Positions 997 to 59,723 of a stretch of DNA of 64,000 nt are shown here, one piece after another. Within the stretch, counting starts at the first letter, position 1. Each line of letters starts with the position of its first letter. A program made the translations under genes and the position numbers. The notes beneath the pieces are model-generated. The model did not search any database and was not told the DNA's origin. It worked only from the letters and a program-made list of their open reading frames with translations. Origin of the DNA: a virus; IMG/VR virus record IMGVR_UViG_3300045988_046609; one strand, given 5' to 3'.

Positions 997-3900
997 ATGG
1001 CAAAAGGAATATGTCCAAACTTAAGTGATCCGCAGATTAAAGCGGAGTTTGATGAAATGGTAGCTGCTCTTGGTGAAAAACAAGCATATGCTATCTGGGA
1101 TATGAATAATGGTTATAGTTTAGATAAGGCTCCGAACGGGGAGCCTTCTGTACTATTCGAAACTCTGTTAGAACATAATAACTAGAATAGAGTAAATGCA
1201 TTATAGGCTAAAGCTAAAGTATATACTAATAGTTTTAAAGCTTGGTTTGGTGACTGGGTCAATCCAAATGCAAAAGATGTATCCAAAGTAGTGGATAAGA
1301 ATGGTGAACCTTTGGTAGTATATCATTACTCAGAGCAATAGATAGAGGAATTTAAAGAAAGTTTTCCGGAAAACTATTTCGCTAAACATAAAGGAGGTAC
1401 AGATAGGGCTATCTTTTTTACAGATAATTCAAATCCAAAAGGTTCTTTTCTTGCAGATAGACCTTATAATAATCCAGTCTATCTGTCTTTAAAAGATGTT
1501 AGAGAAAAACATGGCACTAAGGATAATCTAAGAGAATCTGGAGAAGGTTTTGTGGATACTGTTAATAATGCTTTAGCAGATGAAAGAGACGGAGCCATAT
1601 TTAAAGAATTTGATGACAATCAACTTTAGAATCAAAATGTATTTGTAGCTTTATCTCCTAGATTAATTAAATCTATAGACAATAGTGGATCGTTCAATCC
1701 AAGGTCTGCGAATATATTTGATAAACAAGACTCTCCACTTCAACAACAGTCTATGTCTCAGATAGATGAAGCTATGAAGAGATTTAGAGCTGAACGATAC
1801 GATTTTGATAAGACATTAGATACGTTAAGACAACTAATAACTAATGCTGTACAAGCACGTATTAAGTCTATTCAGAATCGTAAGATAGCTAACAAGACTG
1901 CTTTATTAGTTCCTTTAGAGCAATAGCTATCTGCCCTCAAGAATCCGAATATCGACTCATTACAGACCATAGTATACTGTTTATCGGATATAAAGAGAAC
2001 TATGACTCGTCCAGTTAATGCCATACTTACTGCTCAAAAGAATCTTAGAGAAGGTAGGGATAGTGGATTTAGTAATCTAGCACTAATACAACTTCAATAG
2101 GATTATTTTGGTATGTATAATAACGTGCTAGAGGAAATTGCTAGAAATGTATTTGATTCTGACATTTATAAAGACATACTTGGAGCATAGAGTTTCGATC
2201 AGATGAAGACTATGATATCCAATATGCGTACTCAATTTGCAGCAGCTAGACAAGGACTTATTGAACTTACTACGGATTTAGCATAGAAGACTATGTTAAA
2301 GTATGGTATTAAAGATGAACAAAGTAGAACAGAATTGGAATAGTATGTAGGAGAGGATCTTATTACTACTGAAAATGATGTTAGTTCTCTAATGAGATGG
2401 ATAGGGTCTGGAGATAAGATGAACGATAAGGCTGCTAGAGTTATGTTCGATATGATAGCAAACACTAATAATAAGACTCGTTTCGCCACTCATAAGTTCG
2501 GTAATAAACTATTACGTTTACAGAAACAGATATCTCTGGGAGATCAAATGAGATTGTTCGAGTATGATTCGGATGGTAAAAAGACTGGTTACTTCATTAG
2601 AGATAGAAAGTATGGAGAGTTTCTTAATAATCTTGAGAAAGAACGTAAACGCTTAAAGACTAAATATAATGTTCCAGAAGGATAGAATATGCCTTTGGAG
2701 AAAGAAGCTAGAACTGCTTTCAATAAGGAGATGAATGACTGGTTGAGTAAACATTGCGAACGTAGATATACTAAGAAATATTATGATGCATTTAATTCAC
2801 TTAGTCAAGAAGCCAGAGATGCTCGAGACGCAATACAATTTAAGATATACAAACTACTGGATGATGTAAGAGATAGTAGAGGAAAAGTACATCTTGAAAA
2901 TCTAGACGCTAAACAATGGGCACAATATGAGAACTATAACATATAGAAGAAGCAGTTGATGTCCATGTACTATGAAGACGGTACTCCTAAAACTGATTTA
3001 GATAAGCAGGTAGCAGAAGAACTTACTGAATTAAACAAGATGCTTCATGAGGGAATGCATTATGTTACCAATGAATAGAAGTTCAACGAAGCTAAACGTG
3101 AAGCAAAGGAAAATCTTACTCCAGAACAGTATGAAGCATGGAAGAAGAGATATACCAGAGTATAGATTAGTGATAAATTCTATAAACAACTATCTTAGAT
3201 AGAGAAGAAAGAATACGGAGATAGGTACATTGAGTTAAAGAAGATAAGAGAAGAGCTTACTAAACCGTATAGAAATGAGTATACTGGAGGTATTGATGTA
3301 CAGTATATGTCATCTACTCTACTGCATACTTTAAATAGTTTGGATAGAGAAATGCGTAAAGAGAGAAAGAACGCTCGTAAATCCAAATCTAAGAAAGAAG
3401 AAGAGTCTATAGAGGGACTTAAATTCGAAGACATTGCAGAATCAGTGCCTACTGAACAATATAAAAGAGATAAGTAGGCAGCTGTAAACAGAGGTATAGA
3501 GTTCTATGAACTATGGGAAAATCAGCATCATATCAAATACTACATAGGTGAGAAAGAAGTAATAGTTCCAAAATGGTACTATACTAAGATAGTTCCAAAG
3601 GATGAAAGACTTATAAACTATGAAGCACCTACTAGAGAGTTTAGTGAAATAGATCCTAATTCAGAGTATTTCAATAGTAAATTCGATGTAAATATTGACG
3701 AGTACTATCAACCTAAAGAATCTCTTTACAAGAATAAAGAGTATGATAATTTATTTAAAGTAAAGAAGGATAAGAACGGTAATGAAGTAGCTACTAGAAA
3801 TATACCTCTGTGGAACTTATATAAAGAGTTACTCAATGGTATGGAAACATCTAATGATAAACTTACTTTCTTGACCAGAAATAATCCATATAAGTTACCA

Positions 3901-5703
3901 CAAATGAGTGGTAGTATGTATCAATATGCTAAAGGAGATGGTATTATAAAAGGATTCTTACAATATACCAGACAAGGTATAGTAAAAGACGTAGATGATG
4001 TAGGTTACGTTGATGCTCCTACAAGTAGACCAGATGGATCTGCTTAGAGAATGATTCCTACTTATTATATAAACAAGTTAGACGATCCTAATAAGATTAC
4101 AAATGACTTAGTTGGTTCTGTTATAGCTTACTTCAAGATGGCTGAAAACTTCAAGAATAAGACAGAGATACAACCAGACCTAGAAGTAATAAAGATGTAG
4201 ATGGCTAATCGTGTATATACTGGAAAACCTATAGGATTAGATGCTCTCAAAAGAAAGATATTTAAGCAGAGTGATAAGAAAGTAGGTGCTGATACTAATA
4301 CTTATAAGTTTATAAGTAGGTTTATGGATATGCAATTATATGGAGAAGAATCTAAATCTATACTTAAGAAATTTGCAGAGGATAGTAAGATAGGTAAATT
4401 CTTTGGATTAGCAGGTAAAGAAGTAAACTTCTCTAAAGTAATCCACAGTATTAAGAACTATGGTCAATTACTTGGATTAGGTCTCAACTTAGCTGTTGGA
4501 GCTACAGGTATGGCTACAGCTTTTTTGGCTCAGCTAGGTATGGCCGCTAATGGTAGATATTTCGATTTTTCTTCTTTTTCCAAGGCATATTTCAATATGG
4601 TAAGTAACTTGTTTGGTATAGTATAGTATGCAAAAGATACTACCACTAACAACAAGTATGTGGCATTGATGCAGAGATTCGAAATAGGCACAGAATTCTA
4701 GAATGCTTTTAGAAACTCTAATAGAATTGGTATAATAAACACGATAAGTAGGAACTGGGCGTTCGGAATTTTTTCATTTTCTGATTTTGTAATCAAAGGT
4801 ACTATACTAAATTCGATTATGAATAACTATAGATACTACAATGGAAGATTCTATAATAGTCAATAGTTCAATTAGTTATTCTCTAACAAAGAAGATGCAA
4901 AAAACATCTGGAGGACTCTATAGAGTACTTATGATATAATTGAAATAGAAAATGGAAATATTGTAATTAGAGATAAAGCATAGGCTAAAGCTTTTGCTGA
5001 AGTATAGAATGAAATTAGTAATAGTGCTAGATCTCTTTCTGCTACAGCTGATGGGCAATTAACAGAAGAACAGAAAGCACAATTCGCTTCTAACGCTTTT
5101 GGTTCTCTTATAATGATGTTTCGTAATTATATACCGAATATTATTAGTGAAAGAATCACTATGAAAAAATAGTATGACTATAATTTAGGTATGGAACGTG
5201 AAGCTTTATTAAGAACTATAGGTAGAGTAGTACCTATGTTAATAAAGGATTGGAATAGTCGTAAACAACTAGATGCATCTGATATAGGAAATATTAGACA
5301 ATTTAGTTATGAAATGACTATGATTGCTTTATTATCATTTGTAGTTAAACCTTTATTAGTTGAAGTTGCTGATGATGATCGAGACAATTGGGTTAAAAAC
5401 TTCTTAGCTCTTCTAGTAACTAGAACTGGATTTGAGTACGGTAACCAATATAATCCTCTAGACTTACTTAATACTATTACTTCAGTAAGTTCTATATTCG
5501 ACATTATGAACCCATTCACTAATCTTATATCACTTAGTGAAATGTGGGAAATTGCTGTTAATAATAAGAAAATTAAGTATGGAGCTTATAAGGGCGACAC
5601 AAAATTAGAAAGATGGTTATGGAAAATGACTCCATTTAAGAATGTCAAAGAAATTCAAGATCCCGCAATCAAACGAAAATATTACGAACAATTATACAAA
5701 TAA
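997..5703 (+). CDS. giant late-module protein (about 1568 codons), TAG-recoded; function unknown, virion or ejected-protein candidate
   Basis: ATG at 997 lies 2 nt after the preceding TAA. I read frame 1 codon by codon to TAA at 5701-5703 and every internal stop is TAG. It links track ORFs 997-1185, 2392-2685, 2689-2946, 3841-4047, 4201-4626 and 5191-5703. There is a Gly/Ala-rich hydrophobic segment near 4480-4560. It is the last gene of the plus-strand module. Confidence 0.7.
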
Positions 5704-8116: not shown

Positions 8117-8965
8117 TTAGGATAGATCTTCAATTATTTCATCCTCATTAGAAATATTAGTTCCTGTTCTTATTACTCCATTTAAGCTAAGATTCATATC
8201 TTTAGCTAATTCATCTAATGGAATATCTTCGAAGAGAACAACTTCATCTAAGAATGCTGAAATATTATCAAATGATTTAACTTCCATATGCTCGACAATG
8301 AAGTTCACGACTTCATCTATATTCTTTATTCCTTTATCTTCTGCCATACAGCGTACAAATGCAGAATTAGAGTTTGCTTTGTATTCTTTAAAATAACGAA
8401 CACGTGAACAACGATCAAAGAAGTTATCGTCTATCTGATCTGTTTTGTTACAGGTCATCAATACTAGTTTTTTAGATGTAGCTTCCACACCGTCTAAGAA
8501 TCCTAATAGATCCTTAGTTTCCCACCAATAAGTGTTTTTTTCAATCTCATCAAACATAACTGCTACAGGAGTAGTAAAATGTTTAAAGAAACTAGTAAGT
8601 TTATTAGCAGGGTAGTCGTTTGCGACTATGATAATAGGTAAATTACTTTCTAGGGCAATACGTTTAGAGAGCATTGTTTTGCCTGTACCTTTAGTACCTG
8701 CAAGTAATATACCGGTTGTCTTTCCAGAATTATCAGAATTAAAATAACTTAATACACGTTTGATAAATTTATTATCTTCTTCTAGTTTGTATAATTTCTT
8801 TGGCATGTTCAAATCACCATTTTCTTTGAGATAAGATCTACCTTGCATTCTATCATACTCTAGATCGTATACTTTGTTACTTATGAGTTCATAAGAAATA
8901 CCTTCTAACTTAGGTTTAACTGTAATCTCATTTCCGATCTTAATAAATTCTGCCATAATATTCAT
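8117..8965 (-). CDS. AAA+ family ATPase
   Basis: Walker A LLAGTKGTGKT. Walker B VAVMFDEIE. Downstream TCN sensor-like motif. Confidence 0.8.
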   Translation of the reverse strand: MNIMAEFIKIGNEITVKPKLEGISYELISNKVYDLEYDRMQGRSYLKENGDLNMPKKLYKLEEDNKFIKRVLSYFNSDNSGKTTGILLAGTKGTGKTMLSKRIALESNLPIIIVANDYPANKLTSFFKHFTTPVAVMFDEIEKNTYWWETKDLLGFLDGVEATSKKLVLMTCNKTDQIDDNFFDRCSRVRYFKEYKANSNSAFVRCMAEDKGIKNIDEVVNFIVEHMEVKSFDNISAFLDEVVLFEDIPLDELAKDMNLSLNGVIRTGTNISNEDEIIEDLS

Positions 8966-8968
8966 TTT

Positions 8969-9361
8969 TTATGTTTTCAACTTGCTGATTAACTCATCAA
9001 CTTGTTTCTGTGTATGTACCACATAAAACGCTGTATTAGGTTCATGTGTGTACAAATAGTAGTTAAATAACTTTTCACGCAAAGCCCATGTATCATTTGG
9101 ATAGCCTTTGCATTCAATAATAAACTTATCACCTACAAAATCAGGTTTATAAGTTATTGCCCTATATTTCTTATCACCAAAAGTAAAAGCTGGAAGCAGT
9201 TCGTATCGTTGAGTTTCATACTCAGCTTTAATATTTGACTCTTCCAGCTTCTTATATGTATATGTCTCAAGTTTGCTTTTAAACCTAATACCATTATACT
9301 CATTTGGTGTTGCATTGCGAATTTTGCTTTCGCTAGGCTTATTTCTTTTCCTCTACGTCAT
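8969..9361 (-). CDS. DUF1064-like PD-(D/E)XK endonuclease (Holliday-junction-resolvase-like) with TAG at codon 3
   Basis: Not in the ORF track. Hand translation gives ATG ACG TAG AGG..., i.e. M-T-TAG-RKRNKPSESKIRNATPNEYNGIRFKSKLETYTYKKLEE...YRAITYKPDFVGDKFIIECKGYPNDTWALREKLF...SKLKT-TAA. There is no Met codon after the TAG. The xYxPDF...ExKG core is typical of DUF1064. Confidence 0.65.
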
Positions 9362-9412
9362 TAGTAATATTAGATTTTCTGGAAATAGTTTTCCTTTCTG
9401 CGGTGAACCATA

Positions 9413-10387
9413 TCATTTGTTAATATTTTTAGTTAACCAATTTTTTACTTTTTCAAATCCATTAGCTTTAATAGCATCAGATATATCCTTTGCCTTAAAT
9501 TTCTTATGGATTAACATACCTTCTAAGCCTGTTTTTTGACTCATTTTACGAAGATATTTTACTCCAGCTCTGTCACGATCAAATAATATAATAATGCGCT
9601 TAAAACGCTTCTTAAGTCTATCTAATACCTTTTCAGGTATAAAGGTTGATTCTGAAGACGGAGATATTGCTGGTATTCCCATTTCGTATAAACACATGAC
9701 GTCTTTCATACTCTTTGTAATAATGAGTATATCTCCAGTCTTAGGTAACTGTTTATAACCTTGAATATCTAATTCAGTTAGGTTATTACGCCATTTTGTA
9801 TATTTGTCGGCTAAAGGTTTATATATCTTAAAATGATTATAAACTTTATATGCATACATTGGATTATCTTCTTTGTAAACGCTTTTTACTATGCCGTTGC
9901 ATAGGTAGTACTTTATACTACTTACTCCAAACTTCTTTAAAGTATCTACCGTAATATTAAACTGCTTCCAGTAATTGATGTCAGTATCAGTGAAATTCTG
10001 ACGTACTACACCAATTACTGTTTCAGTTGACGGTATATATTGCTTAGAGCTAACTAATTGCGTATCTTTAGTAATTTTAAGTTTCTGAATAATATCCTTA
10101 AGTATATCATTATAATTTGTTAATCCAGTATAAATACTTACAAATTTAATAACGTTACCGCATTCTCCAGTTCCATGATCTTTAAACATTAACTGTTTAC
10201 TAGTTCTACTATAGAAACATCCAAATGATGGGTTTCTATCTTTACGAAACGGACTATTGTAAATCATCCCTACTTTAAAATTACCTATATACGCAGCATA
10301 TATATCATACTCCGTTACTTTAGAAAGTATATAATCTAAAGTAATATTATCATCATCGTTTATTATTTTCGTTGTATCGTAAGTCAT
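9413..10387 (-). CDS. DNA primase (zinc-finger plus TOPRIM, DnaG-like)
   Basis: N-terminal SPFRKDRNPSFGCF...HGTGECG zinc-finger-like motif. TOPRIM-like ILIITKSMKDVM and IIILFDRDRAG. The start is set at the second ATG (10387) because the track start (10411) lies inside the tRNA-like acceptor stem. TGA stop. Confidence 0.8.
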   Translation of the reverse strand: MTYDTTKIINDDDNITLDYILSKVTEYDIYAAYIGNFKVGMIYNSPFRKDRNPSFGCFYSRTSKQLMFKDHGTGECGNVIKFVSIYTGLTNYNDILKDIIQKLKITKDTQLVSSKQYIPSTETVIGVVRQNFTDTDINYWKQFNITVDTLKKFGVSSIKYYLCNGIVKSVYKEDNPMYAYKVYNHFKIYKPLADKYTKWRNNLTELDIQGYKQLPKTGDILIITKSMKDVMCLYEMGIPAISPSSESTFIPEKVLDRLKKRFKRIIILFDRDRAGVKYLRKMSQKTGLEGMLIHKKFKAKDISDAIKANGFEKVKNWLTKNINK

Positions 10388-10402
10388 ATGATATATTTTT
10401 AG

Positions 10403-10489
10403 TAGGAGCATAGAGATTCGAACTCTATAATAAATAAGAAATATATCTTTTTCTTATTTATACCATATTTCTGAATATCAGAAACTCCT
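10403..10489 (-). ncRNA. tRNA-like element with a 12-bp hairpin in place of the anticodon arm
   Basis: Minus-strand read: AGGAGT(T)...(T)GCTCCT acceptor-like stem. T arm TAGAG-TTCGAAT-CTCTA. Central perfect 12-bp stem ATAAATAAGAAA / TTTCTTATTTAT with an 8-nt loop. No canonical D arm. 87 nt in total. Confidence 0.4.
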
Positions 10490-10493
10490 ATTT

Positions 10494-10558
10494 AAAAACG
10501 TAGGTTGTGCACTATTGTGTGTCACTCATTTTTTCATAGTGCGGTGCACTAACCTACG
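10494..10558 (-). terminator. intrinsic terminator downstream of the SSB-like gene
   Basis: Minus strand: CGTAGGTT...AACCTACG 8-bp outer stem with inner CACTAT/ATAGTG pairing, followed by TTTTT. Confidence 0.6.
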
Positions 10559-10606
10559 TATTCCTAGCTTATGCTCTAGGTAGCTACTGTTATTTTATTT
10601 TCTTCT

Positions 10607-11209
10607 TTAAAAAGGAAGATCACCTGTTGGATCAAAAGATGTTTCCATTAGAGGATTAGTATCCTTAGTTTCTACATCTGCTATTACAGGTTTAGTAAAT
10701 TGGTCTATACTCAATTCTGCAATTTTACTCTTTTCTCCTTCAGGAAGATTCATTGGTTCAATAAAAGTAAACTTACAATAATTAGGCAATGTAGTATATC
10801 CCTTTTTATTATATACTATCTTTACTCTAAGTAAAATATTCTTGTTTGCTGCATTTAGCATCATAGCAACCCAATCAACAAAGTCTTTATAAGAAGAACC
10901 AGCAAATACTAGTGCCTCTTTAGGATAGAAACATTCAAGAATTTGCATAATTCTTTTAACTTGTTTACTACCTCTAGTTTGACATTCCTCATCAGACTCT
11001 CCAGGTTTCTTAGTAGATTCCCATTCTGTATGAGTTAAATCTTGTCCTTCTTTAGTAAATTTTACTTCAAGAAAGATATTTCCGTTAATAGACTTGTCAA
11101 CTTTTGCTCCTACAAGCTGTACGTCTTCATGAATACCTGCTTCTAAGTATTTACTTTTTAAAACGTCTGTAGTCTCTATTTTGTTTGCTAATTCTGTGCT
11201 ATAAATCAT
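10607..11209 (-). CDS. single-stranded-DNA-binding-protein-like
   Basis: 200 aa. The C-terminus ...DPTGDLPF resembles the acidic D-(D/L)-PF tip of SSB tails. The gene lies between the primase and a RecA-like ATPase. The OB fold was not verified. Confidence 0.45.
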   Translation of the reverse strand: MIYSTELANKIETTDVLKSKYLEAGIHEDVQLVGAKVDKSINGNIFLEVKFTKEGQDLTHTEWESTKKPGESDEECQTRGSKQVKRIMQILECFYPKEALVFAGSSYKDFVDWVAMMLNAANKNILLRVKIVYNKKGYTTLPNYCKFTFIEPMNLPEGEKSKIAELSIDQFTKPVIADVETKDTNPLMETSFDPTGDLPF

Positions 11210-16116: not shown

Positions 16117-16234
16117 TTCCCTATTTCGGATTTGAACCGACGACCTCCCCTAACATATACGAATATATAGTAATACGAATATTACATCAATATATACGAA
16201 TTACAGGATGCTCTACCACTGAGCTACTAGGGAT
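16117..16234 (-). ncRNA. tRNA-like gene with a roughly 51-nt AT-rich insertion at the anticodon position
   Basis: Minus strand: acceptor TCCCTA(G)/(A)TAGGGA. Textbook D arm GCTC-AGTGGTA-GAGC. Variable loop AGGTC. T arm (G)TCGG-TTCAAAT-CCGA(A). Between a weak TCCT/AGGG stem lies a 51-nt insert carrying three copies of ATTCGTAT. No assignable anticodon. Confidence 0.5.
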
Positions 16235-17782: not shown

Positions 17783-18361
17783 TCAACCTTTTCTGATTTT
17801 AACAATTTTGTTATTTAGCTTTCCGATGATCGGTAATATCCGTCCACCACCGAGATCTACACCTACGCCAATCTCAACATCACCGTCAAGACTGTACTCG
17901 TGTTTATACTGTTCACGTTGTTCTTCTGCATATTTTTTTGCATTTTCCTGATTGATATATTTAGAATGTAGTTCCCCGTCTGAACAATTCCTCATACTAT
18001 CAAACAAAATATCTACTACACAGTCGAAGTCGCGTTCTTTTACAGCTTTATCAAGAATACTTTTAGTAATTCCGTCAAAAGCAACATCATTTCTGGATCC
18101 ATTAGATCCAGTAATTGCGTCTGCTATACGAATTGATGCATCTATAATACTTACCGATTCATAAGAATTACAGCATCTTTGCCACCAAATTGGTCCACGT
18201 CCATAATAAAAATAGACGGTTCCATTCTCTTTAATTTGAACCTTTTTAGGAGTTTCAATTACAGCTCCGTTCCGAATCTGAACTTTGCTGAGAATTGTTG
18301 GCTCTGAGCAAATAAGTATTCGCAGAAGCTCTACTCTTATAGGAGAAATTCTGCTATTCAT
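17783..18361 (-). CDS. hypothetical protein
   Basis: 192-aa ORF with TGA stop. Visibly more GC-rich than its neighbours. Confidence 0.65.
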   Translation of the reverse strand: MNSRISPIRVELLRILICSEPTILSKVQIRNGAVIETPKKVQIKENGTVYFYYGRGPIWWQRCCNSYESVSIIDASIRIADAITGSNGSRNDVAFDGITKSILDKAVKERDFDCVVDILFDSMRNCSDGELHSKYINQENAKKYAEEQREQYKHEYSLDGDVEIGVGVDLGGGRILPIIGKLNNKIVKIRKG

Positions 18362-18368
18362 AACTTAC

Positions 18369-19016
18369 TTATCCCTGGGCTTGTTCGATAGTTACGTTTA
18401 CTTCTACCTGATCTTCGTTAGTGATCCCACACTGCCGTAAGTACTCTACTTGAGCACGATCCTGTTGGTCCATAATGTTCCGGACAGTTTCTGCAAGTTG
18501 CATGTTTTTACGGGCTTGTTCCTCATAGAAATTCAGAATAGATGAGTTATGCATCTTTAAGCATGTATTCAACTGCGGAAGTTCAGAAGGACCAAAGAAA
18601 ATAGGTCTTGTAGGATTTGTTGGATCGTTCGGCTTGGTTAATGTTGCAATACAGGCCATTACACTTTCCCGGGTTGCTTTCTGGAAATTCGGTTCAGCAA
18701 GATCAAATACCAGTGATGGATCCTGAGACTTCGGATTCAGAATTACCTTTGGATGACCGTCAAAGTCCTTTTCACAAAGTTCAATACCTGTAATATCAAT
18801 AGGCTTGACTATGAAAATCCGGACATCCTTCCGTAATGTGTTCTTGTCATTCTGAACATCTTCTTTCCATTTCAGATCTGGGTTGTGTGATACAATTGTA
18901 TAGATCTGGCTACTAAAGTATTCTCCATACTTTTTACAAACTTGCCGATATCGAGCCATAATAGAAGCTAACTCCGTGTTAGGAGTAACCATTTGTATTT
19001 TACTATTTTGTTCCAT
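18369..19016 (-). CDS. hypothetical protein
   Basis: 215-aa ORF with ATG start and TAA stop. More GC-rich than the block average. Confidence 0.65.
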   Translation of the reverse strand: MEQNSKIQMVTPNTELASIMARYRQVCKKYGEYFSSQIYTIVSHNPDLKWKEDVQNDKNTLRKDVRIFIVKPIDITGIELCEKDFDGHPKVILNPKSQDPSLVFDLAEPNFQKATRESVMACIATLTKPNDPTNPTRPIFFGPSELPQLNTCLKMHNSSILNFYEEQARKNMQLAETVRNIMDQQDRAQVEYLRQCGITNEDQVEVNVTIEQAQG

Positions 19017-21144
19017 AAAAAATGTTCCCTTCTTGATTCCGTACTTGATATACCAATACGGATCATTTTTAGTTTTTAAGTTAATAATAAGTTAATGCTC
19101 TCCACTGTTCGATTATTTTATAGTATTACAATAATGGTAATAGTGAATTCAATCACATAATCTACTAAGTATATTTGATAATAAATGTTAATTTATTCGA
19201 AAATATCTTTTGATAAATTCTCTGATAAATTTTCTGATAATATGCTTTAACGTCCCGTTTCGACGGTTAAGATTCAATTTTTTCGATGCTTAACGCACCC
19301 CTCACCGTTATTTTATATCGCTATTAGTTGCAATATAAAAGACACAGATCATCGACTAAGTAAGTCTACCTGGTATTTCCGTATTATCGAAATTCATAGA
19401 ATTACGGTCGTTTATCTAACGTTACCAACTCATGAGCTCATTGCTTAAAGCATGACCCACTCATACCATGCATAGGATTTGTTGTTTATAACTGCGCGAA
19501 CACGAGGATTTCCACCTCTCATCGTCTCCTTGTTGCTTGATTGTTATTACGATCAAGTTAAATACTTCGTCCTTTAATCTACCGAGACAGGGTGATAGAC
19601 GACAGGTTATTAACGAATCAGCGTTCTCTTTACGTATATATTTGCGATATATACTTTATGAGTTTCTAATGTCAGCGATAACGGTTGGCAGTCTGGGGGT
19701 GACTTATACTCCATACGGTCTGTCTTACAAATGACAATTTGCTACTTCTGTACTATCATTGGACTTCCCCAATTTCTATGTGACTCATAGCCTTCCTACA
19801 CTATGCAGTCTGATTAATAATATTAATTTATTCCCTTAGAACAGATTTAACTAGGCCGGTTCTATTCGGCATTAACTTTCAGATGCAGTAAAGTAACATC
19901 ATCTGTTCACAATCTTACCTCTCTGGTTCCAGGGTTCTAAGCTGGAGCAGCTTGGCTCTTACTTATTAATTTATTGTTTTTGACTACTACTAATATCTCC
20001 TACTCTGGAATGAGTGTGATAATCTAGTAATACACCTTTTACATATCTTGAAAGGTATAAGCTCTGCTGTTTTTAGAAGGAGTTCCAAAGCTTCTCCTTA
20101 GTATTATTTTATGTCATAATCGTACTTGCTAAAGGTACGTGACAACTAGAATCAGGGTTATTGCGCCCTCAAACCGCTTAGACATCTTTGTCTATTCATT
20201 CCTCATTCAATTATACTCACACGAACGAATAAGCACGTGAGTCACTTTAGACTTGAAAGACGGTATCAATCTCATATACCTCATCCCTTATACGTAAATT
20301 CTTTTGCGGCACGCTAGTTACGGTAGCGCACAGGATTGGCTCCTGCTCCCTGGTAATCAGTCGGATCATGGATCTGCACGTAGCTTCACTCCCCGGATCA
20401 TTGCATGTCCAGCCTTCATATCTTTACTTTGTATAAGTATGTACCATAACACGGTTATCCTTACATTAGTATCAGTAATTACTCCCTTTATATTATGAAC
20501 CAGTTATCATAAAAACACTAGAGTTAGCCTATTTTTCCAATCAGGACGTATAATTACGCTTTTGTATAAAGCGAGGTTGGAGCCCGCTTGTTGCGTTAGT
20601 CAGCCATAATATTATTCAATAATCCTTTTCCAAGGGATTATTCAAGAGCCCTTTGCTCTTGTTTCAGCATCGTGTTCATATTCCTTCTTGAGTCACATCT
20701 TGATTGACGCATACGAATATAGAGATTTCGTTCTCTTTTTGAGGATTAAGGACTTTATCTTTTACAGTTTTATTTGTTTATTGCTGCGATTCAGTCTCCT
20801 CTTGTTTGAATTAATTTGTAACTAGGGTATCTTCTTGTTGCTCCTATATTACGGGTTCTTCACTCTTAATATCACCAGACGGTTCTCATATTAACAGCGC
20901 AGGCTATTCACCCTCTCCTGCTTTCTTATACCTTTTTCACCAGCATAAGTTATTATCCTACCTTTTGAGTATCTTACGGTGTTAGCCGCTACGAAGCATC
21001 TCATAACTACTTCTTACATATTCTCGGATTCTGTCTTTTTCGGGCTATGTATAAATGAATACAAACTCCCTGACGCAGTAGTACTTAAAAACTTCCTTCT
21101 GTGACTGCCGGAGTGATTTACGCTATAGTTTTACTCCTCTCGAA
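19017..21144. other. 2.1-kb ORF-free, GC-enriched segment; candidate large structured non-coding RNA region
   Basis: No minus-strand ORF of 60 aa or more, and only two short plus-strand ORFs. Hand-counted GC was 42-48 percent in two 60-nt samples, against 32-35 percent in two coding samples. Many local hairpins. Confidence 0.4.
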
Positions 21145-21609
21145 CTATGATATAATTATAGTATTTATATAGCGGTTATTATCATTAACTTTTTCCGCTG
21201 AGGGTTTATCTTCCCCTACACTAAGTTGCTCCGGTTTTATACAGAAAATTTCTCCTGAAGATAAGTTAATATTTGCAACTATTTTCTTACCTCTGCATAT
21301 ATCTACTATGCCGTTTTTTATATCATTACTACTGATATAATCAACTGGATCCATTTGTCCTGGGTCAAAACCGTCCAAGCGAACACAAATCTCACTTACA
21401 GACGAACGTAAGTACTGCTCTACGAATAAGATATTCTCGCAACTAGCTTTAGCTTGTACCTGAATTAAGTTAGTACTTTGTCCTTGCACAATAAAGTAGT
21501 TTGATTGGTCTATTACGAAATCTAAATTTCGTCTAGCTTCTTTAATGTTACGTATGATACGCGATAGACGTGCCATACTATTTAACATAATGTAATTTTT
21601 CTTATTCAT
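21145..21609 (-). CDS. hypothetical protein (ends in TAG)
   Basis: Track ORF trimmed to the ATG at 21609. The stop is TAG at 21145-21147, with an in-frame TAA 8 codons further on. Confidence 0.6.
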   Translation of the reverse strand: MNKKNYIMLNSMARLSRIIRNIKEARRNLDFVIDQSNYFIVQGQSTNLIQVQAKASCENILFVEQYLRSSVSEICVRLDGFDPGQMDPVDYISSNDIKNGIVDICRGKKIVANINLSSGEIFCIKPEQLSVGEDKPSAEKVNDNNRYINTIIIS

Positions 21610-21611
21610 CA

Positions 21612-22001
21612 CTATTGTTTTTTGGTAAAAGGAGAAAGTGGTTTTACATCCTCTGGTAGGTTAGCTATACTACTTACCTTTGGAAATCCTGTATTTACTT
21701 CTTTTACTTTGGTCCTGTATTTAACTATAGGTTTTACTTCTCCTGTAGTTGTTACATTTACAATTGCGTCCGTTGTTCCATTTACGGATACTTCGTGGGT
21801 ATTAATATCTACTGATACATTAATCGTATCTATACCCGCGGACTTTTTCTCTTCTGTTTTAGAATGTGTCATAGACATTAATTCTAAATATGAAGGAATA
21901 ACAGGCTGAGCCTGTACTACTTCAGTAGTATTTACTAAATTCCAGCCAATATAAATACTCGCAAAGAATATTAGTACTACTGATACGATTCTACTATTCA
22001 T
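21612..22001 (-). CDS. hypothetical secreted or membrane-anchored protein (ends in TAG-TGA)
   Basis: 129 aa with an N-terminal hydrophobic segment. The stop is TAG, followed immediately by TGA. Confidence 0.6.
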   Translation of the reverse strand: MNSRIVSVVLIFFASIYIGWNLVNTTEVVQAQPVIPSYLELMSMTHSKTEEKKSAGIDTINVSVDINTHEVSVNGTTDAIVNVTTTGEVKPIVKYRTKVKEVNTGFPKVSSIANLPEDVKPLSPFTKKQ

Positions 22002-22055
22002 TTTGATGATGATTTAGTGAATAACTTTCTAAAGGTAATAATTTGTTTCCAAATT

Positions 22056-23594
22056 TTAAGGATCTGGCTTAGCTTTTTTTTCAACCTTATCCTCTTTTGA
22101 AGGAAACTCTCCTGTAGTAGGAGTAATTATGCCTTCTTCGTATTCTGCAAGACGATCCATAGGATCACGATACAGATTGATAATCTGGCCTATCTTCATA
22201 CGAACTTCATCTTTAGATGGATGCTGTCCTTCTGGAAAATAGTTCTGACTTACTAGATCAAACTGCTTTTTTGCAAGTTTGAGTGCTTCTTGTTGTTCAC
22301 TGTAGTCTTTATCTCCCGGTTTAGATGTTACACCGGCAGAAATAGTATTGAATAAATCATCAATATACTTTCTACCAACATTTCCAATTACTGCTTGAAG
22401 TGCTTTATCGTCAGTTGCCTTCAGATTTTCATCACTCTTAAGTTTGTAACGGAAGTTTTCTTGCAACAGTACTTTTAAAGTACTTGCAATCTGTTCTTCA
22501 CTCCAGCCACATGGTGCCATATGCTTATGTAGTAAGGAATGAGCGGAGACCGGAGAACCCTGTGCAGCAGTATATAAATATACTGTACGTCCAAGACCAT
22601 TCATTAGTGGAACACTGTTGATAATATGGAAGATCTCTTCAATCCACTCTGCTACAGTGCGATTGTCAAGTTCAATCTTCTTTTCTGCATTATCTTCTTT
22701 GTTGATACAGTATACACGATACCATTCAACTGTGTTAACAATATTAGTTGCAATATTGCGATCTTTACGCATAAGATGATCTAGGACAGCAGCTAATTCT
22801 TCAAGAGAATTGATGTCCTTAGGATCAAGCGAAATAGGTTTTGTAGGAGCCTCAGCTTTGTTTTCCTTCAACTCATCAGGAATTTTAGTATCTGGAGAAT
22901 TGAAATCAATTGCTAATTGACCTTCATTCTCTTTTCCCGGAAGTGCTTTAGGTTCAGCTAAAGTAATGCCAAGAGAATCTGCAATATCCTGCAATCGGAA
23001 GATCTGTTCAGCAGGTAGTTTACACACAAACTCACCGGCAGCAGATCGTTCTGCAAATTCATTCTTGATATCAATCATTCCAAGCAACCATACTGCGTCG
23101 ATAGATCGAGCTGTATTTGCATATGATTCTGGACTTTGGTTCTTATACTCTTCATTATTAATGAATCGTTGATAACCAACATACGCAAGCATTGCTTTCG
23201 CATCAGCAGAAGAGCGATTAGATCCAATAGGGATTCCATTTCCTATTGCAGGGATTTTACCAACTTTTTCTTCCACTTCTGGAATTATTGTAGGAATCTT
23301 TGGACTCTTCTTTCCTTTATCAGCCGTTTGTTGGGTAGGCTTCTTTTCTTCCTTTTTCTCCTCCTTCTTAGTTTCTTTCTTAGAAACTTCCTGACTCTTT
23401 TCTTGTTTAGAGTTTGCTGCAGGTTTTGGAGCAGATTTCTTCTCCTGGGTTGCTGAAGTATTATCAGCTACTTGCTGAGTATCCTCAGCTTTACTGTTCT
23501 CTGATTTAGCATCAGCTGATTTTTTGTCAGCTAGACTTACTTTTGTTGCAACTTTTGCTGCATTTCCTCCTTTATTATTCTTTGGTTTTGACAT
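22056..23594 (-). CDS. hypothetical protein with K/E/S-rich disordered N-terminus
   Basis: 512-aa ORF. Roughly the first 110 aa are low-complexity lysine/glutamate-rich sequence. Confidence 0.7.
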   Translation of the reverse strand: MSKPKNNKGGNAAKVATKVSLADKKSADAKSENSKAEDTQQVADNTSATQEKKSAPKPAANSKQEKSQEVSKKETKKEEKKEEKKPTQQTADKGKKSPKIPTIIPEVEEKVGKIPAIGNGIPIGSNRSSADAKAMLAYVGYQRFINNEEYKNQSPESYANTARSIDAVWLLGMIDIKNEFAERSAAGEFVCKLPAEQIFRLQDIADSLGITLAEPKALPGKENEGQLAIDFNSPDTKIPDELKENKAEAPTKPISLDPKDINSLEELAAVLDHLMRKDRNIATNIVNTVEWYRVYCINKEDNAEKKIELDNRTVAEWIEEIFHIINSVPLMNGLGRTVYLYTAAQGSPVSAHSLLHKHMAPCGWSEEQIASTLKVLLQENFRYKLKSDENLKATDDKALQAVIGNVGRKYIDDLFNTISAGVTSKPGDKDYSEQQEALKLAKKQFDLVSQNYFPEGQHPSKDEVRMKIGQIINLYRDPMDRLAEYEEGIITPTTGEFPSKEDKVEKKAKPDP

Positions 23595-26445: not shown

Positions 26446-27051
26446 ATGCAAAAGTATAAATTACATAGAAGTTTAATTACTGTTATATGTGATCAATGCG
26501 GTAAAGAATATCTTAAACCTTTATCTGAGTATAAAAGAAATAAAGAATTAGGACGTCATAGTTTTTGTTCTAGATCTTGTTCTTGTAAATATAATTGTGT
26601 TCATTCATCTAATAAAATGCTAGAATATTCTAGATCAGAAAAAAATAAACAACGTTTAAGGTCTCTAAATGAAATAAAACGCTTAAAACGTCCAGAAGCA
26701 GTATTTTCATATTGCCTACGAAACTGTAGAAAACGATATAAGGAGTGTACTATTACATTAGAAGACTTACAAGAACAATGGAATAAACAAAAAGGTATAT
26801 GTCCTTATTCTGGAATATCTTTATTAGTTCCTACATATAAGAAAAATCATAATAATCCAATATATAGTGCATCAGTTGATAGAATTGATAGTACTAAAGG
26901 TTATATTCCTGGTAATATTCAATTTGTATCTACATGCATTAATTATATGAAGAATACTATGTCTGATGAAGAAACAAGGTTTATGTGTAAATGTATTGCA
27001 GAATATTTCTATTCTGAAGGGACTATTTCATCATCTGTCATTACTGCTTAA
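26446..27051 (+). CDS. free-standing HNH endonuclease, antisense to the surrounding block
   Basis: 201 aa. N-terminal CDQC...CSRSC Cys cluster. C-terminal SVDRIDSTKGYIPGNIQFVSTCINYMKN (HNH-type D-R-I-D...N...N). Standard code, TAA stop. Confidence 0.7.
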   Translation: MQKYKLHRSLITVICDQCGKEYLKPLSEYKRNKELGRHSFCSRSCSCKYNCVHSSNKMLEYSRSEKNKQRLRSLNEIKRLKRPEAVFSYCLRNCRKRYKECTITLEDLQEQWNKQKGICPYSGISLLVPTYKKNHNNPIYSASVDRIDSTKGYIPGNIQFVSTCINYMKNTMSDEETRFMCKCIAEYFYSEGTISSSVITA

Positions 27052-27298
27052 GATGTCGGACGCTCTAGCTGGTTATTAAGGAAACTATATTCCTCCAGTA
27101 GTCTCTGCACTTTTATAGAGTGTACTCTATACTTAGCTCAAGATTAGCATGAATAAAGCTAGTTTTGAGCTTTATTTTTAGCTTTCCTTGAATTCATCCG
27201 ATTATTCAATATACATTTCTGTATAAGGGGTCCGAATTTCACAAACCCTCGTCTTACAACTGATTCATAGACCTAACAGTCAATTGTGACTATGTAGG

Positions 27299-27328: not shown

Positions 27329-27731
27329 AAATTATTTTACTTATAAGTTTTGATAACTGATCATTTATAGACTAGTACAGAAGTATTACTACTCAACATT
27401 TGCTATAATGTTTGCCGATTTGATATCATAAGAATGCTATTTGCATAATATACTCTTTGAGTATAGATTCAATACTATATATTGCGCAATTATTATAATA
27501 CATCCTCACGATCTTAGGCACTTGATCAGTGGCACGTTTTCTAGTCCAACTCCAGTATTGAATAGTTCTCACTATCGTACATTTGTTTGTTTCCTGTCAA
27601 TTCAGGATGAAGCTGCTTATTGTAGATACCGATGTACATGGATCTCACCATTTGCTTTCAATCTTCTTCGGATTCTCTATAGAATTAATATCTCTATTAT
27701 TCAAGTATCTTTCCTGGACCTTGTGTGGCTA

Positions 27732-28196: not shown

Positions 28197-28435
28197 TTCT
28201 TGATAATGTTTAAAGATTGATACTATTATTAATTAACACTAAGTTTTAAATTAAAAAAAGAACTGTTCTGCATATTTGTATACCTTATTTTGCAGATAAC
28301 CCCTATCCTTCTTCTATCCTATTAGGATTGCCGTTGTATAGCCATTGTACTCTAGTTCTTACGAACTTCCATTAGGGTTCTGGTATATTTACAGTTCTTT
28401 TGGGTTGATTAGAATCCACCATACTAACAATTTAA

Positions 28436-29800: not shown

Positions 29801-30296
29801 TTTACATAGGCTTTAAATTGTTAGTTAATAAAATTGATGACGTTACTCTAGGGTATTCTAGAGTAAGAAACACATCTGTTAACGAATGATTCAAGTTATA
29901 ATACCATAACTTTGAGACTAATACTAAAATGATTTCAAATGCACTTAACGCTTTGTGTTAATAAAGAAAATCAAATTTTAACATTACTTGTTAGAGTTTT
30001 ATTCTATGACTCTCATATGTTTTAGGATTACTCCAGAGTACATACAGAAATAGCTGTCAAACTAAATCTTAGAACTCACCTGATTTTTACGTCCGCACGA
30101 TCGTAAGCACAAATACGAGTATTTCTATACTTATCTTATCGTATTTAGTACAGTATAGATATGCACTTACTTACGCCCCACAGGCTTGTCATCTTCTGAA
30201 GACTAACCTATTCTCACGAACCAGTTAGCTATAAATTCACATTTAACTATTAATCTTAATAAATCTTTGTTAAATACTACTATGCATATACTTTCT

Positions 30297-38719: not shown

Positions 38720-38822
38720 GGGAGAGTGGCGGAATGGTATACGGCAGTAGATTGACGGAAGCGCCCTAAAGTCGTCATTAACAAAGCTCTTGGGTTTGAA
38801 AGTTCGAGTCTTTCCTCTCCCA
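38720..38822 (+). ncRNA. 103-nt tRNA-like gene (type-II-like) with an oversized anticodon region
   Basis: Acceptor GGGAGAG/CTCTCCC with discriminator A. Leu-like D region TGGCGGAATGGTATAC. T arm GAAAG-TTCGAGT-CTTTC. The only good central stem, TGACG/CGTCA, encloses a 15-nt loop (GAAGCGCCCTAAAGT) that contains CTA. The anticodon cannot be assigned. Confidence 0.45.
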
Positions 38823-38830
38823 CTTAATAT

Positions 38831-38905
38831 TCCCCTATGGTGTAATGGTAACACTCGGAGCTCTAACCTCCGTATTGCCCGTTCGAGTCGAGGCTGGGGG
38901 GACCA
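38831..38905 (+). tRNA. amber suppressor tRNA, anticodon CUA (Gln-like body)
   Basis: Acceptor TCCCCTA/TGGGGGG (two G-U pairs). U8. D arm GTGT-AATGGTA-ACAC. Anticodon stem CGGAG/CTCCG. Loop CTCTAAC with CTA at 38863-38865, U33 and A37. T loop TTCGAGT, with a T stem GCCCG/CG(A)GGC carrying a 1-nt bulge. Encoded ACCA end. Confidence 0.85.
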
Positions 38906-41633: not shown

Positions 41634-41635
41634 CT

Positions 41636-59721: not shown

Positions 59722-59723
59722 TT

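Follow-up and report, generated by a model that had tools for sequence, protein, structure and literature searches.

The segment at 19017-21144 (minus strand) of the 64 kb of viral DNA analysed here, called the window below, is very probably a gene for a structured non-coding RNA of ~2.0-2.1 kb that accompanies the genes of the early/replication block. It forms a chain of covariation-supported multi-helix domains, each of at most ~500 nt, along its whole length of 2128 nt, with supported helices running from ~21137 to 19039. We consider it highly likely that the element is a functional structured RNA, and its base pairs point to minus-strand transcription, in line with its flanking genes. Full-length homologs of 2108-2152 nt occur in 8 GenBank phages and on >120 IMG/VR contigs. 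The RNA family appears to be new, as it is absent from Rfam and from the searchable literature, in which we found no prior description of it. The proposal of an earlier note on this DNA, that the segment encodes a large structured RNA of unclassified kind, is backed by covariation, strand asymmetry, deep conservation and the lack of an Rfam match.

Non-coding nature and sequence constraint

The longest start-to-stop reading frames within 19017-21144 encode 40 aa (minus strand) and 65 aa (plus strand, TTG start), and TAA, TAG and TGA each occur 6-35 times per frame in all six frames, which bears out the earlier description of the segment as ORF-free. It is the largest stretch in the window without an ORF of >=80 aa; the runner-up, at the window edge, measures 1642 nt. 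Recoding of TAG, TGA or TAA, singly or paired, was considered and opens no frame, the longest frame being ~115 aa when a single stop codon is reassigned and 297 aa when one stop codon is kept. Period-3 substitution power is 1.35 in the element, compared with 139 and 152 in the flanking genes; the segment thus has neither the open frame nor the 3-nt periodicity of an alternative-code gene. All 23 Loutivirinae representatives are ORF-free here, and in the second branch of homologs 25 of 27 representatives lack a consistent ORF, the remaining two being chance motif hits. The element contains no conserved small ORF (the best shared one occurs in just 13 of 23 sequences), and the ORFs annotated over it in some records differ between genomes and are not conserved. 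We conclude that 19017-21144 is non-coding.

Sequence constraint is stronger on the element than on the protein genes around it: mean pairwise identity reaches 0.74-0.75 in the element vs 0.65-0.67 in flanking coding DNA, and the element is 82-92% identical at the nucleotide level between genomes whose neighbouring proteins share 39-56% aa identity. The earlier suggestion of a decayed foreign gene is refuted by the lack of codon periodicity, by conservation exceeding that of the flanks, and by the ORF-free state of the relatives. Two outcomes that the earlier note named as refuting its RNA reading were not borne out: there was no support for frameshifted protein remnants, and the element proved conserved among relatives.

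GC content is 36.7% in the element and 33.0% in the window (94th percentile of 2128-nt windows), with local peaks of 42-43% at about 20150-20600 and 24.7% in the AT-rich 3' 243 nt (19017-19259). The GC enrichment reported earlier is real, although modest, and the 42-48% samples on which it was based represent local maxima. The plus strand is pyrimidine-rich, as had been noticed, reflecting an RNA-sense strand with 36.7% A and 20.7% G. Comparison of the element with the rest of the window by blastn returned just chance matches of 15-25 nt (E = 0.4) and no second copy.

Flanking genes

The ORFs on either side of the element are complete, separate genes, not exons, and like the element they lie on the minus strand in a syntenic arrangement. 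Upstream is a 155-aa gene (21145..21612) whose product has no above-threshold hit in PHROG, Pfam or NCBIfam. Immediately downstream, the RNA is succeeded in every Loutivirinae genome examined by a 215-aa gene (18369..19016); in other subfamilies a gene of comparable size is found at this place. The 215-aa protein has 173 homologs, one cluster of which is present on at least 1000 contigs, and matches no family (PHROG, Pfam, NCBIfam) or PDB entry; its AF2 model is unusable (pLDDT 47). The second downstream gene (17783..18361) encodes a 192-aa protein with an AF2 pLDDT of 67.8 and a best Foldseek PDB match at E 0.56; its candidacy as an FtsJ-type methyltransferase was marginal (E 0.3) and was not confirmed by profile search. 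Searches of the neighbouring proteins against PHROGs, Pfam, NCBIfam and PDB and with Foldseek were empty or sub-threshold, and gave no clue to a partner of the RNA.

Consensus fold and covariation

The consensus fold of 23 non-redundant Loutivirinae homologs (alignment A1) contains 400 pairs, with 94.3% of cells paired vs 84.8 +/- 0.2% after shuffling. An independent pair-count tool detects compensatory changes in 167 of these pairs vs 112.6 +/- 4.7 in shuffled alignments, with a score of 0.307 vs 0.143 shuffled and 0.05-0.07 for slid controls. In RNAalifold the element folds at -456 kcal/mol with 403 pairs, 168 of them covarying, whereas column shuffles reach -133 to -146 kcal/mol and 24-38 pairs, and flanking coding controls -286 to -313 kcal/mol and 84-88 pairs; these shuffled, slid and coding controls are not phylogeny-aware (no R-scape). 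A subcluster of the second branch, analysed independently, reaches -753 vs about -500 kcal/mol and 137 covarying pairs vs 35-41, distributed over every 200-column bin. A sequence-only MAFFT alignment of both branches yielded 5 pairs in RNAalifold, an alignment failure that covariance models solved. The three hairpins singled out in the earlier note, at 20121-20139, 20644-20660 and 20311-20327, are all real, corresponding to A1 helices 49, 23 and 40, each with covariation support.

Strand was assigned from the asymmetry of G.U and A.C pairs, which stand at 767:149 in the element, with 26 G.U-dominated pairs vs 0 A.C-dominated, and at 349:49 in the second branch. The asymmetry agrees with the earlier guess of minus-strand transcription. 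By contrast, single-sequence folding of the sense strand (20340-21144) is no better than shuffles (z = -0.41) while the antisense strand scores z = -2.14, and these values count against a sense-strand RNA.

When span is limited, the consensus fold resolves into seven top-level domains of 45-525 nt. Helices spanning >600 nt show almost no covariation, and lifting the span limit adds just 11 kcal/mol; the domain-closing long-range helices produced by unlimited-span folding have no covariation support. A single global fold is therefore not established.

Domains and motifs along the RNA

Beginning from the 5' side, the first supported helix (A1 helix 2) is a hairpin GGAGU...ACUCC at 21110..21137 (minus strand, as for all features that follow) whose 5 bp are nearly invariant in Loutivirinae; its ...AAUCACUCC motif is also seen in part of the second branch, and the 5' end of the RNA is placed at or upstream of this hairpin. 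It is followed by a universal 5' domain (20867..21072), captured by the Loutivirinae-only covariance model R1, in which the motifs GAGAAUAUGU, CUCAAAAGGUAGGAU and UGAGAACCGU are separated by covarying hairpins. A family-wide alignment of 39 sequences over R1 is 94.4% paired vs 74.6% shuffled, with compensatory changes in 20 of 25 pairs and a score of 0.456 vs 0.144. Indels are limited to a few hotspots such as the variable insertion at 20735..20815 (A1 columns about 484-554; gap fraction 0.62-0.81 in the 23-sequence alignment), which this window shares with a few close relatives but which most homologs lack.

A lineage-specific core domain (20355..20566) forms a nested multi-helix junction closed by 20566-20558/20362-20355, its nested helices of 8, 8, 4 and 3 bp containing 2, 4, 2 and 2 covarying pairs, respectively; A1 helix 35, in the same region, has 10 pairs of which 6 covary. 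The core domain includes an 18-nt block, UAACCGUGUUAUGGUACA (20440-20457), that is invariant in 9/9 and 23/23 Loutivirinae sequences; as a query this 18-mer retrieved at least 120 IMG/VR loci, and it is absent from the second branch. The best conserved long block in Loutivirinae (20121..20300; 90-95% column identity in a 9-sequence alignment) holds a GAGGGCGC..UAACCCUGA hairpin and the ACCUUUAGCAAGU hairpin at 20121-20139, and comprises A1 helices 44, 47, 48 and 49, of which 44, 48 and 49 covary.

The universal central domain (19477..19679) is captured by a second Loutivirinae-only covariance model, R2, and its block is recovered by nhmmer too. Its motifs are UGCCAACCG, ACUGUCUC, GGUGGAAAUCC and UUCGYGCAnUAUAAA. 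Alignment A6 of this domain is 92.8% paired vs 75.0%, with compensatory changes in 15 of 22 pairs and a score of 0.445 vs 0.184, figures that must be tempered by the fact that A6, like A4 and A9, was fitted to the model structure and its pair counts are biased towards the model.

Structured RNA reaches into the AT-rich 3' tail, because the hairpin UAUUAC-(loop)-GUAAUA located there (19124..19142; A1 helix 86) covaries, showing compensatory changes in 6/6 pairs with 99.3% of cells paired. The 3'-terminal hairpin CCGUA...UACGG (19039..19061; A1 helix 87; 10 pairs, 100% paired) carries AUCAA in its loop and again just 3' of its stem, ahead of the downstream gene's ribosome-binding site and start codon (ATG, 19016). 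Homologous 3' hairpins with different stems are found in Oafivirinae, Boorivirinae and Bearivirinae, and the hairpin could represent either the 3' end or a processing site of the RNA, or a translational operator. A 21-nt motif, ACC..UAU...AAUACUAUAA, brackets the element (21176-21156, 19138-19118) and was considered as a phage promoter or att-like repeat; we regard it as coincidence, since the window contains just these two copies and the 3' one is non-conserved and lies inside covarying helix 86.

Distribution across crAss-like phages

The window is part of a crAss-like genome, as the earlier note had implied, and in all genomes examined the element occupies one fixed syntenic site. Although the R1 and R2 models were trained on Loutivirinae alone, both domains were found, collinear, in Loutivirinae, Boorivirinae, Bearivirinae, Uncouvirinae and Oafivirinae, that is, in all five delta-group subfamilies, and the two models together provide a sensitive marker of the group. 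R1 recovers every one of the 26 genuine second-branch loci (E 4e-20 to 6e-5) and all 8 loci from further genera and subfamilies; R2 has matches at 16 loci of the second branch (E 4.5e-7 to 6e-4) and at 6 of the 8 further loci, always ~1.1-1.4 kb downstream of the R1 match. The sole outgroup searched with the covariance models, phiCrAss001, gave no match.

The ~1 kb between R1 and R2 is lineage-specific in sequence while overall length is maintained, the next ATG lying 2031-2293 nt from the 5' domain in 11 of 12 genomes from the five subfamilies. Folded de novo, this intervening ~1 kb is structured in both lineages analysed (Loutivirinae and an Oafivirinae subcluster). Among 185,579 species-level cellular genomes there were 7 matches, every one in a MAG bin whose taxonomy is inconsistent, and four lie on ~100 kb contigs; we reject these as cellular homologs and interpret all 7 as mis-binned phage contigs. 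Within the data searched, the element thus appears confined to crAss-like phage contigs.

One transcript, several RNAs or a leader

The constant total length across five subfamilies favours a single unit, and we consider it probable that the element yields one transcript rather than several. The chief competing possibility, to which we give a modest chance, is a cluster of independent smaller structured RNAs, e.g. 4-7 of 130-500 nt. Such a cluster would account for the division of the span-limited fold into seven domains, for the lack of covariation in helices >600 nt, and for the restriction of sequence conservation across subfamilies to two domains. It would leave unexplained why total length and domain order are kept in five subfamilies despite replacement of the intervening sequence, and no part of the element matches a known sRNA, tRNA or ribozyme family. 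Nor do internal signals speak for separate units: a scan for sigma-70-type promoters, which did not cover promoters of Bacteroidota or crAss RNA polymerases, found 11 sites vs 14.4 +/- 3.6 expected, and a scan for intrinsic terminators found none above chance. The same scan fails to bear out a promoter-like TTAAC motif proposed earlier ahead of the downstream gene.

The element might instead act in cis as a giant structured 5' UTR, co-transcribed with the 215-aa and 192-aa genes and controlling their translation, timing or stability, with the 3' hairpin as operator; this we consider rather improbable. The RNA does end right at the ribosome-binding site and ATG, with no predicted terminator between, and the hairpin with duplicated AUCAA precedes the ribosome-binding site in four subfamilies with changing stems. 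The downstream gene is the same throughout Loutivirinae, and a similar-sized gene pair is found there in other subfamilies. A leader would, however, be conserved at 82-90% of nucleotides ahead of a regulated protein conserved at 40-56% of residues, and the universal domains are 0.5-2 kb away from the ribosome-binding site they would serve. To our knowledge, 2 kb of multi-domain structure far exceeds any bacterial or phage leader. Cis control would be compatible with a free-standing RNA gene provided that the 3' hairpin forms a small operator of its own.

Ribozymes, DNA elements and protein genes

The element is very unlikely to be a large ribozyme or an intron-like or mobile RNA, whether a retroelement template, a group II intron that has degenerated and lost its ORF, or a self-cleaving or self-splicing RNA of a new kind. 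Its size, its wealth of GAAA-type loops and its multi-helix junctions do resemble what is typical of large ribozymes, and the same window contains RAGATH RNAs, a hatchet ribozyme and a group I intron. At gathering thresholds Rfam 15, with its models for GOLLD, ROOL, OLE, HEARO, raiA, group I/II introns, RNase P, tmRNA, rRNA, tRNA and others, has no match inside 19017-21144, in agreement with the earlier failure to recognise any group II domain V, tRNA or rRNA likeness. At E<=10 with permissive filters the sole Rfam match is a 19-bit chance hit to a retroviral frameshift site (gathering score 70), and models of group I and II introns, RNase P and other ribozymes remain unmatched. A group II intron in particular is contradicted by the absence of Intron_gpII and group-II-D1D4 matches, by intact flanks that are complete separate genes, and by the lack of an internal ORF. 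No reverse transcriptase or variable-repeat partner was seen, and a DGR template repeat was rejected on finding no near-identical copy elsewhere in the window. The fixed syntenic site and the absence of a second copy in the window give no sign of mobility.

That the segment functions as DNA, be it an origin of replication, a packaging site or an array of protein-binding sites, is scarcely credible. A long non-coding stretch within the replication gene block, with an AT-rich 3' tail bearing short A/T-rich direct repeats such as UUAUCAGAAAAUUUAUCAGAGAAUUUAUCA, might invite such a reading. The G.U/A.C ratio of 767:149 and hundreds of helix-keeping compensatory changes are, however, properties of RNA and not of duplex DNA. 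The segment has no iterons or inverted repeats, its direct repeats are weak, two-copy and not significant, cumulative GC skew is monotonic through the region, and GC content is higher in the element than around it.

A protein gene, whether decayed or read in an altered code, can be dismissed for practical purposes: the genome does encode a suppressor tRNA(CUA), and stop codons are reassigned in crAss-like late genes (PMC7886860), but TAA, TAG and TGA are spread through every frame without codon periodicity, the annotated ORFs differ from genome to genome, and the element outconserves real genes and has held its length far longer than a pseudogene would.

Comparison with large structured RNAs

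The preferred reading, a structured RNA gene in its own right, places the element beside the 'ornate' RNAs. It is longer than ~500 nt, non-coding, phage-encoded and of covariation-supported structure, as they are; it does not share their frequent location next to tRNA islands, the tRNA cluster of the window lying ~18 kb off (38.7-39.6 kb) and a weak tRNA-like match ~2.8 kb off (16117-16233). GOLLD, at a little over 800 nt the largest of three ornate classes, is likewise a phage-encoded, very large structured RNA known from covariation and without an assigned function (PMC12286853). It is composed of a universal and a less conserved part (PMC12286853), much as the element is composed of universal and lineage-specific domains. 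At about 2050-2130 nt the element is ~2.5 times the ~800 nt of GOLLD, it lies between protein genes in a replication block whereas GOLLD is usually found near tRNA islands, and the GOLLD Rfam model does not match it even at E<=10. Recent cryo-EM work has reportedly found GOLLD, ROOL and OLE to form unexpected RNA-only assemblies.

ROOL, too, is large and structured and is found in phages and prophages of gut and rumen ecosystems, with no known protein partner or function (PMC12286853). It is smaller (~580-660 nt) and forms an octameric cage via kissing loops, some of them covariation-supported; its Rfam model does not match the element, and a search of the 23-sequence alignment for covarying palindromic loops, a low-power sequence proxy for self-assembly of the ROOL/GOLLD type, detected none. 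OLE is a large multi-domain RNP scaffold whose dedicated partners are encoded adjacent to it (PMC12286853). It is bacterial, ~600 nt long and membrane-associated, whereas the element is phage-encoded without an Rfam match, and no such partners were identified among the proteins flanking the element.

Possible mechanism and significance

Modelling a mechanism on OLE, GOLLD and ROOL, we suggest that the RNA would act in trans during early or middle infection as a multi-domain scaffold or RNP, its universal domains forming a functional or partner-binding core and its variable domains serving as structural spacers. OLE was chosen as a model because conserved genes without assigned function flank the RNA. 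A trans-acting scaffold or RNP specifically is a tentative assignment, drawn by analogy. We are slightly less hesitant about a single ~2 kb transcript of a new giant RNA class folding into one multi-domain particle with its own activity, which could be catalytic or could form the core of an RNP machine for reprogramming the host's translation, RNA metabolism or defence. If true, this would be the largest functional non-ribosomal RNA known in a bacterial virus, its ~2.05-2.13 kb far exceeding the sizes of GOLLD, ROOL and OLE.

In each of the delta-group genomes examined the element takes up ~2% of the length; since it is also conserved above the adjacent proteins, the RNA is very likely to be important for infection. 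In the dataset of Yutin et al. (PMC7886860) no other crAss-like group has as many genomes as the delta group, which contributes 13-18% of crAss-like reads. The phages that carry the element form a very abundant group of human gut viruses. The RNA offers a target for structure determination and an entry to the early biology of phages that are mostly uncultured.

Recognition of the element would also correct the annotation of hundreds of phage genomes, as public records leave the locus blank or fill it with spurious small ORFs. Yutin et al. (2021) described regions of 'short ORFs of different polarities', mainly in the zeta group, whose predicted proteins are unmatched even between close genomes (PMC7886860). 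The annotation of Dulem virus 42 treats the element, which belongs to the delta group, as a region of this type. Those regions were reported without an RNA interpretation or an analysis of structure or conservation (PMC7886860), whereas the element is among the best conserved DNA of its neighbourhood.

Other large structured RNAs, namely self-splicing group I and II introns, are common in crAss-like genomes of the delta and zeta groups (PMC7886860). Such introns interrupt genes; the element lies between two complete genes and contains no homing-endonuclease or reverse-transcriptase ORF. In the window itself, a group I intron lies 6 kb from the element, and the group I intron, hatchet ribozyme and RAGATH RNAs are located at 27-30 kb.

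Genomic context and coding potential

Sequence matching places the element (19017-21144, minus strand) and its flanks in the delta group of crAss-like phages, with a best match to cr56_1 (Buchavirus, Loutivirinae, Suoliviridae; 91% identity over the element). Upstream lie a sigma-factor-like gene, a 512-aa gene and two small genes, all in the same (minus) sense; downstream are a 215-aa gene, a 192-aa gene and, further on, the DNA polymerase gene. Sequence comparison shows that the element has the properties of an RNA gene of the early/replication block that is long, conserved, structured and phage-specific, and we infer that its product acts as RNA; its existence as one RNA or several, and its transcript boundaries, are likewise predictions. 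As the earlier note had claimed, it is free of sizeable ORFs, and it is the largest such stretch of the window: the longest ORFs are 40 aa (minus) and 65 aa (plus), all six frames contain each of TAA, TAG and TGA 6-35 times, and no one- or two-stop reassignment opened a gene-sized frame, even though a suppressor tRNA(CUA) is encoded in the genome. The GC enrichment described there is present but modest (36.7% versus 33.0% for the window), with 42-43% reached only at peaks, and the 3' tail is AT-rich (24.7%). The window holds no second copy of the element, and the element no internal repeats, iterons or inverted repeats.

Full-length copies (2108-2152 nt, 66-92% identity) are found in eight GenBank crAss-like records of three genera, mostly without annotation in this region. 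An 18-nt block invariant in these copies retrieved at least 120 IMG/VR contigs; among the matches listed, 76 are full-span and 23 are non-redundant at <97% identity. All 23 representatives are ORF-free in the standard, TAG-recoded and TGA-recoded codes, and no conserved small ORF was found in the element. The power ratio for 3-nt substitution periodicity is 1.35, against 139 and 152 in the genes that flank it in these genomes, and mean pairwise identity (0.74-0.75) exceeds that of flanking coding DNA (0.65-0.67). Because the homologs are ORF-free, lack this periodicity and are conserved above the flanking genes, a decayed or recoded gene is excluded, which removes the decayed foreign gene from the candidates listed earlier. 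When positions 17783-23594 are compared with four loci retrieved from other genomes (L002, L005, L006, L007), nucleotide identity of the RNA is 82-90%, and amino-acid identity is only 39-47% for the adjacent 512-aa protein and 40-56% for the 215-aa protein. Conservation of the RNA beyond its neighbouring proteins reflects either extreme purifying selection or a recent exchange of the RNA module between lineages by recombination.

In public records, 'hypothetical protein' CDSs are annotated over the RNA at L002 2898-3335, L005 2900-3337, L129 9249-9731, L223 3206-3712, L225 12095-12280, L230 11861-12022 and L132 about 8640-10650. Mostly antisense or tiny, and unconserved between genomes, these are probably spurious calls, for which an ncRNA feature should be substituted.

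Covariation and strand

RNAalifold, run on the 23-sequence alignment with span <=600 nt, gave -456 kcal/mol for the sense strand of the element, with 403 pairs, 168 pairs with double-sided changes and 5.3% non-canonical cells. Column shuffles gave -133 to -146 kcal/mol, 221-247 pairs, 24-38 double-sided and 8.2-9.5% non-canonical; flanking coding DNA of the same genomes gave -286 to -313 kcal/mol, 306-317, 84-88 and 10-12%, thus scoring lower despite greater divergence than the element. An independent pair-count tool was applied to a separately made alignment of 23 sequences (A1; 400 pairs in 87 helices), with 500 shuffles and slid partners as controls, a null that here and throughout ignores phylogeny. 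Standard pairs fill 94.3% of cells (shuffles 84.8 +/- 0.2%, slid 36-42%), compensatory change affects 167 pairs (112.6 +/- 4.7, 37-43) and 932 cells (304.5 +/- 15.9, 77-111), and the covariation score is 0.307 (0.143 +/- 0.003, 0.048-0.069); none of the 500 shuffles reached the observed value in any measure. In many helices most or all positions covary (e.g. 5/5, 6/6, 6/9, 6/10 pairs), and indels are limited to a few hotspots. The three hairpins singled out in the earlier note are A1 helices 49, 23 and 40, each with compensatory changes, and the first of its three candidates, a large structured RNA of unknown class, is supported by these values and by a scan in which no family in Rfam 15 matched the element.

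Supported helices contain 767 G.U against 149 A.C cells, with 26 G.U-dominated and 0 A.C-dominated pairs, and the independent second-branch set (Oafivirinae-side homologs) contains 349 against 49. Given this excess, together with better alifold energy and covariation count for sense than for antisense, the predicted RNA sense is the window's minus strand, like that of the flanking genes and as first proposed, although single-sequence folding of 20340-21144 does not favour it (sense z = -0.41, antisense z = -2.14).

Distribution across crAss-like phages

A tblastn search with the 512-aa neighbour protein turned up the Oafivirinae genomes cr7_1, cr272_1 and cr131_1 and the lemur-gut Dulem virus 42, all with an ORF-free gap of ~2.0-2.2 kb at the same position. 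The gaps were missed by blastn with the element, and a Loutivirinae alignment profile found two collinear blocks in them (E down to 2e-19 and 2e-11). A branch-specific motif added 83 IMG/VR loci (57 full-span, 27 representatives, mean identity 0.55). Covariance models of the 5' domain (R1, 20867-21072) and central domain (R2, 19477-19679) were trained on Loutivirinae only: R1 matched full-length in 26/26 genuine second-branch loci and in 0/2 chance-motif loci, and R2 matched in 16 of those 26, always ~1.1-1.4 kb downstream of R1. In these cross-subfamily alignments, which are fitted to the model structure, 93.9% of R1 cells are paired versus 76.6% in shuffles (17/25 pairs compensatory; score 0.398 versus 0.135), and 92.8% of R2 cells versus 75.0% (15/22; 0.445 versus 0.184), with slid-control scores <=0.07 and <=0.12.

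If the RNA is ancestral, genomes nearer to Loutivirinae than Oafivirinae should carry it. Sigma-like gene identity to Loutivirinae is 43-57% in other delta genomes versus 25-33% in Oafivirinae, and the expectation was borne out: Boorivirinae (cr10_1, cr50_1, cr1_1), Bearivirinae (cr6_1) and Uncouvirinae (cr118_1, cr114_1) each show a gap of 1.85-2.5 kb at the syntenic position, and R1 matched 8/8 further loci and R2 6/8, collinearly. The family-wide R1 alignment is 94.4% paired versus 74.6% (20/25 pairs compensatory; score 0.456 versus 0.144), and R1 lies 2031-2293 nt from the next ATG in 11/12 genomes. Only the two modelled domains hold sequence motifs common to both branches. The lineage-specific middle is nevertheless structured, and no mere spacer, since an Oafivirinae subcluster analysed alone shows structure along its whole length. 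Current NCBI taxonomy places Oafivirinae in a separate family, Darmviridae, and under that classification the RNA occurs in two families.

A two-anchor motif occurs in only 7 MAG contigs among 185,579 bacterial and archaeal species genomes (L216-L222, labelled Gastranaerophilaceae, Sphaerochaeta, Intestinibacter, Lachnospiraceae, Bacteroidaceae and Segatella copri). Because this taxonomy is inconsistent and 4/7 contigs are ~100 kb, the latter are almost certainly whole genomes of crAss-like phages wrongly placed in bacterial bins; the true host range may show in the Segatella and Bacteroidaceae labels.

The outgroup phiCrAss001 (Steigviridae) showed no comparable gap and no significant R1 or R2 match in 100 kb of its record (1-50,000 and 52,680-102,679, the 2,679 nt between falling inside gene Gp47). 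An unannotated gap of ~905 nt (L232 43286-44190; record 95965-96869) adjoins the gene of the TROVE-domain (Ro60-like) protein Gp96. Ro60 proteins bind Y RNAs, and a Y-RNA-like partner might therefore be encoded in the gap. It was rejected as a relative of the present RNA, with R2 at E 2.6 and 7.5 (non-significant) and no R1 match.

Architecture and candidate function

On the analogy of OLE, GOLLD and ROOL (PMC12286853), we tentatively favour a multi-domain scaffold or ribonucleoprotein that acts in trans and whose functional core would consist of the two universal domains, R1 and R2. In the supported fold, locally closed multi-helix domains of 45-525 nt each succeed one another from ~21137 to ~19039. 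Removing the span limit gained only 11 kcal/mol and added long-range helices with 0-2 covarying pairs each, so a single global fold is left unsupported. A cluster of smaller RNAs, possible but rather unlikely, concerns architecture and is compatible with the other readings.

The AT-rich 3' tail belongs to the structure, since helix 86 (19142-19137/19129-19124) has compensatory changes in 6/6 pairs. The final hairpin (19061-19039, minus) directly precedes the 215-aa gene's ribosome-binding site. It is conserved across four subfamilies, with homologous sites in L129, L130, L131, L223, L224, L226, L227 and L228; stem sequences differ, the loop always contains AUCAA, and a second copy, AUCAA(A/G)AAGG, always follows directly on the 3' side of the stem. 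The hairpin may serve as a translational operator or a protein-binding site, or form the giant RNA's 3' end; that the whole element is a giant cis-acting leader of the downstream genes seems improbable. A 21-nt motif (ACC..UAU...AAUACUAUAA) present in exactly two copies in 64 kb, one per element end (21156-21176 and 19118-19138, minus), was rejected as a meaningful bracket: the 3' copy is unconserved in homologs and lies inside a covarying helix, so the match is taken as a coincidence.

The element is not an intron, since it lies between complete genes, matches no intron model and carries neither an endonuclease nor a reverse-transcriptase ORF; a ribozyme or intron-like element is very doubtful. 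A DGR template is rejected for want of a copy elsewhere in the window, and an origin or packaging site by the RNA-specific signatures and the absence of repeats and GC-skew change. Neither the neighbouring proteins nor a kissing-loop palindrome test gave a clue to mechanism.

No prior description of the RNA was found in the searchable literature, which leaves out most subscription journals; Yutin et al. 2021 reported unexplained regions of short mixed-polarity ORFs, chiefly in zeta-group genomes, and did not interpret them as RNA (PMC7886860). GOLLD (>800 nt), the largest of three 'ornate' classes (PMC12286853), and ROOL (659 nt) are both exceeded about 2.5-3 times in length by the present RNA.

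Other RNAs of the genome

ARAGORN calls a suppressor tRNA (anticodon CUA, labelled 'Pyl') at 38830-38905 (plus). Because of it, other stretches of 1.2-1.6 kb without a standard-code ORF >=80 aa (62359-64000, 2947-4200, 995-2231, 58795-60024, 40971-42130) are probably TAG-recoded late genes and not further RNAs. Two over-long tRNA-like Rfam matches uncalled by ARAGORN (38720-38822, plus, and 16117-16233, minus; 103 and 117 nt, 33-35 bits) could represent tRNAs that are degenerate or contain an intron. Neither ARAGORN nor Rfam found a tmRNA in the window; delta-group relatives have an annotated tmRNA (SsrA) within the sigma-like gene block, a few kb upstream of that gene (L129 4480-4836, L131 4269-4632, L225 6506-6891, L227 6846-7341, L230 6841-7283).

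Structured RNAs are unusually abundant in this genome. Between 26999 and 30203 (minus), ~6-9 kb from the element, Rfam identifies a group I intron (26999-27254, 85 bits), RAGATH-20 (27510-27607, 101.8 bits), RAGATH-9 (28256-28412, 138.7 bits) and a hatchet ribozyme (30078-30203, 92 bits). RAGATH and hatchet motifs were first discovered in metagenomes, and their presence here suggests that delta crAss-like phages are their natural home.
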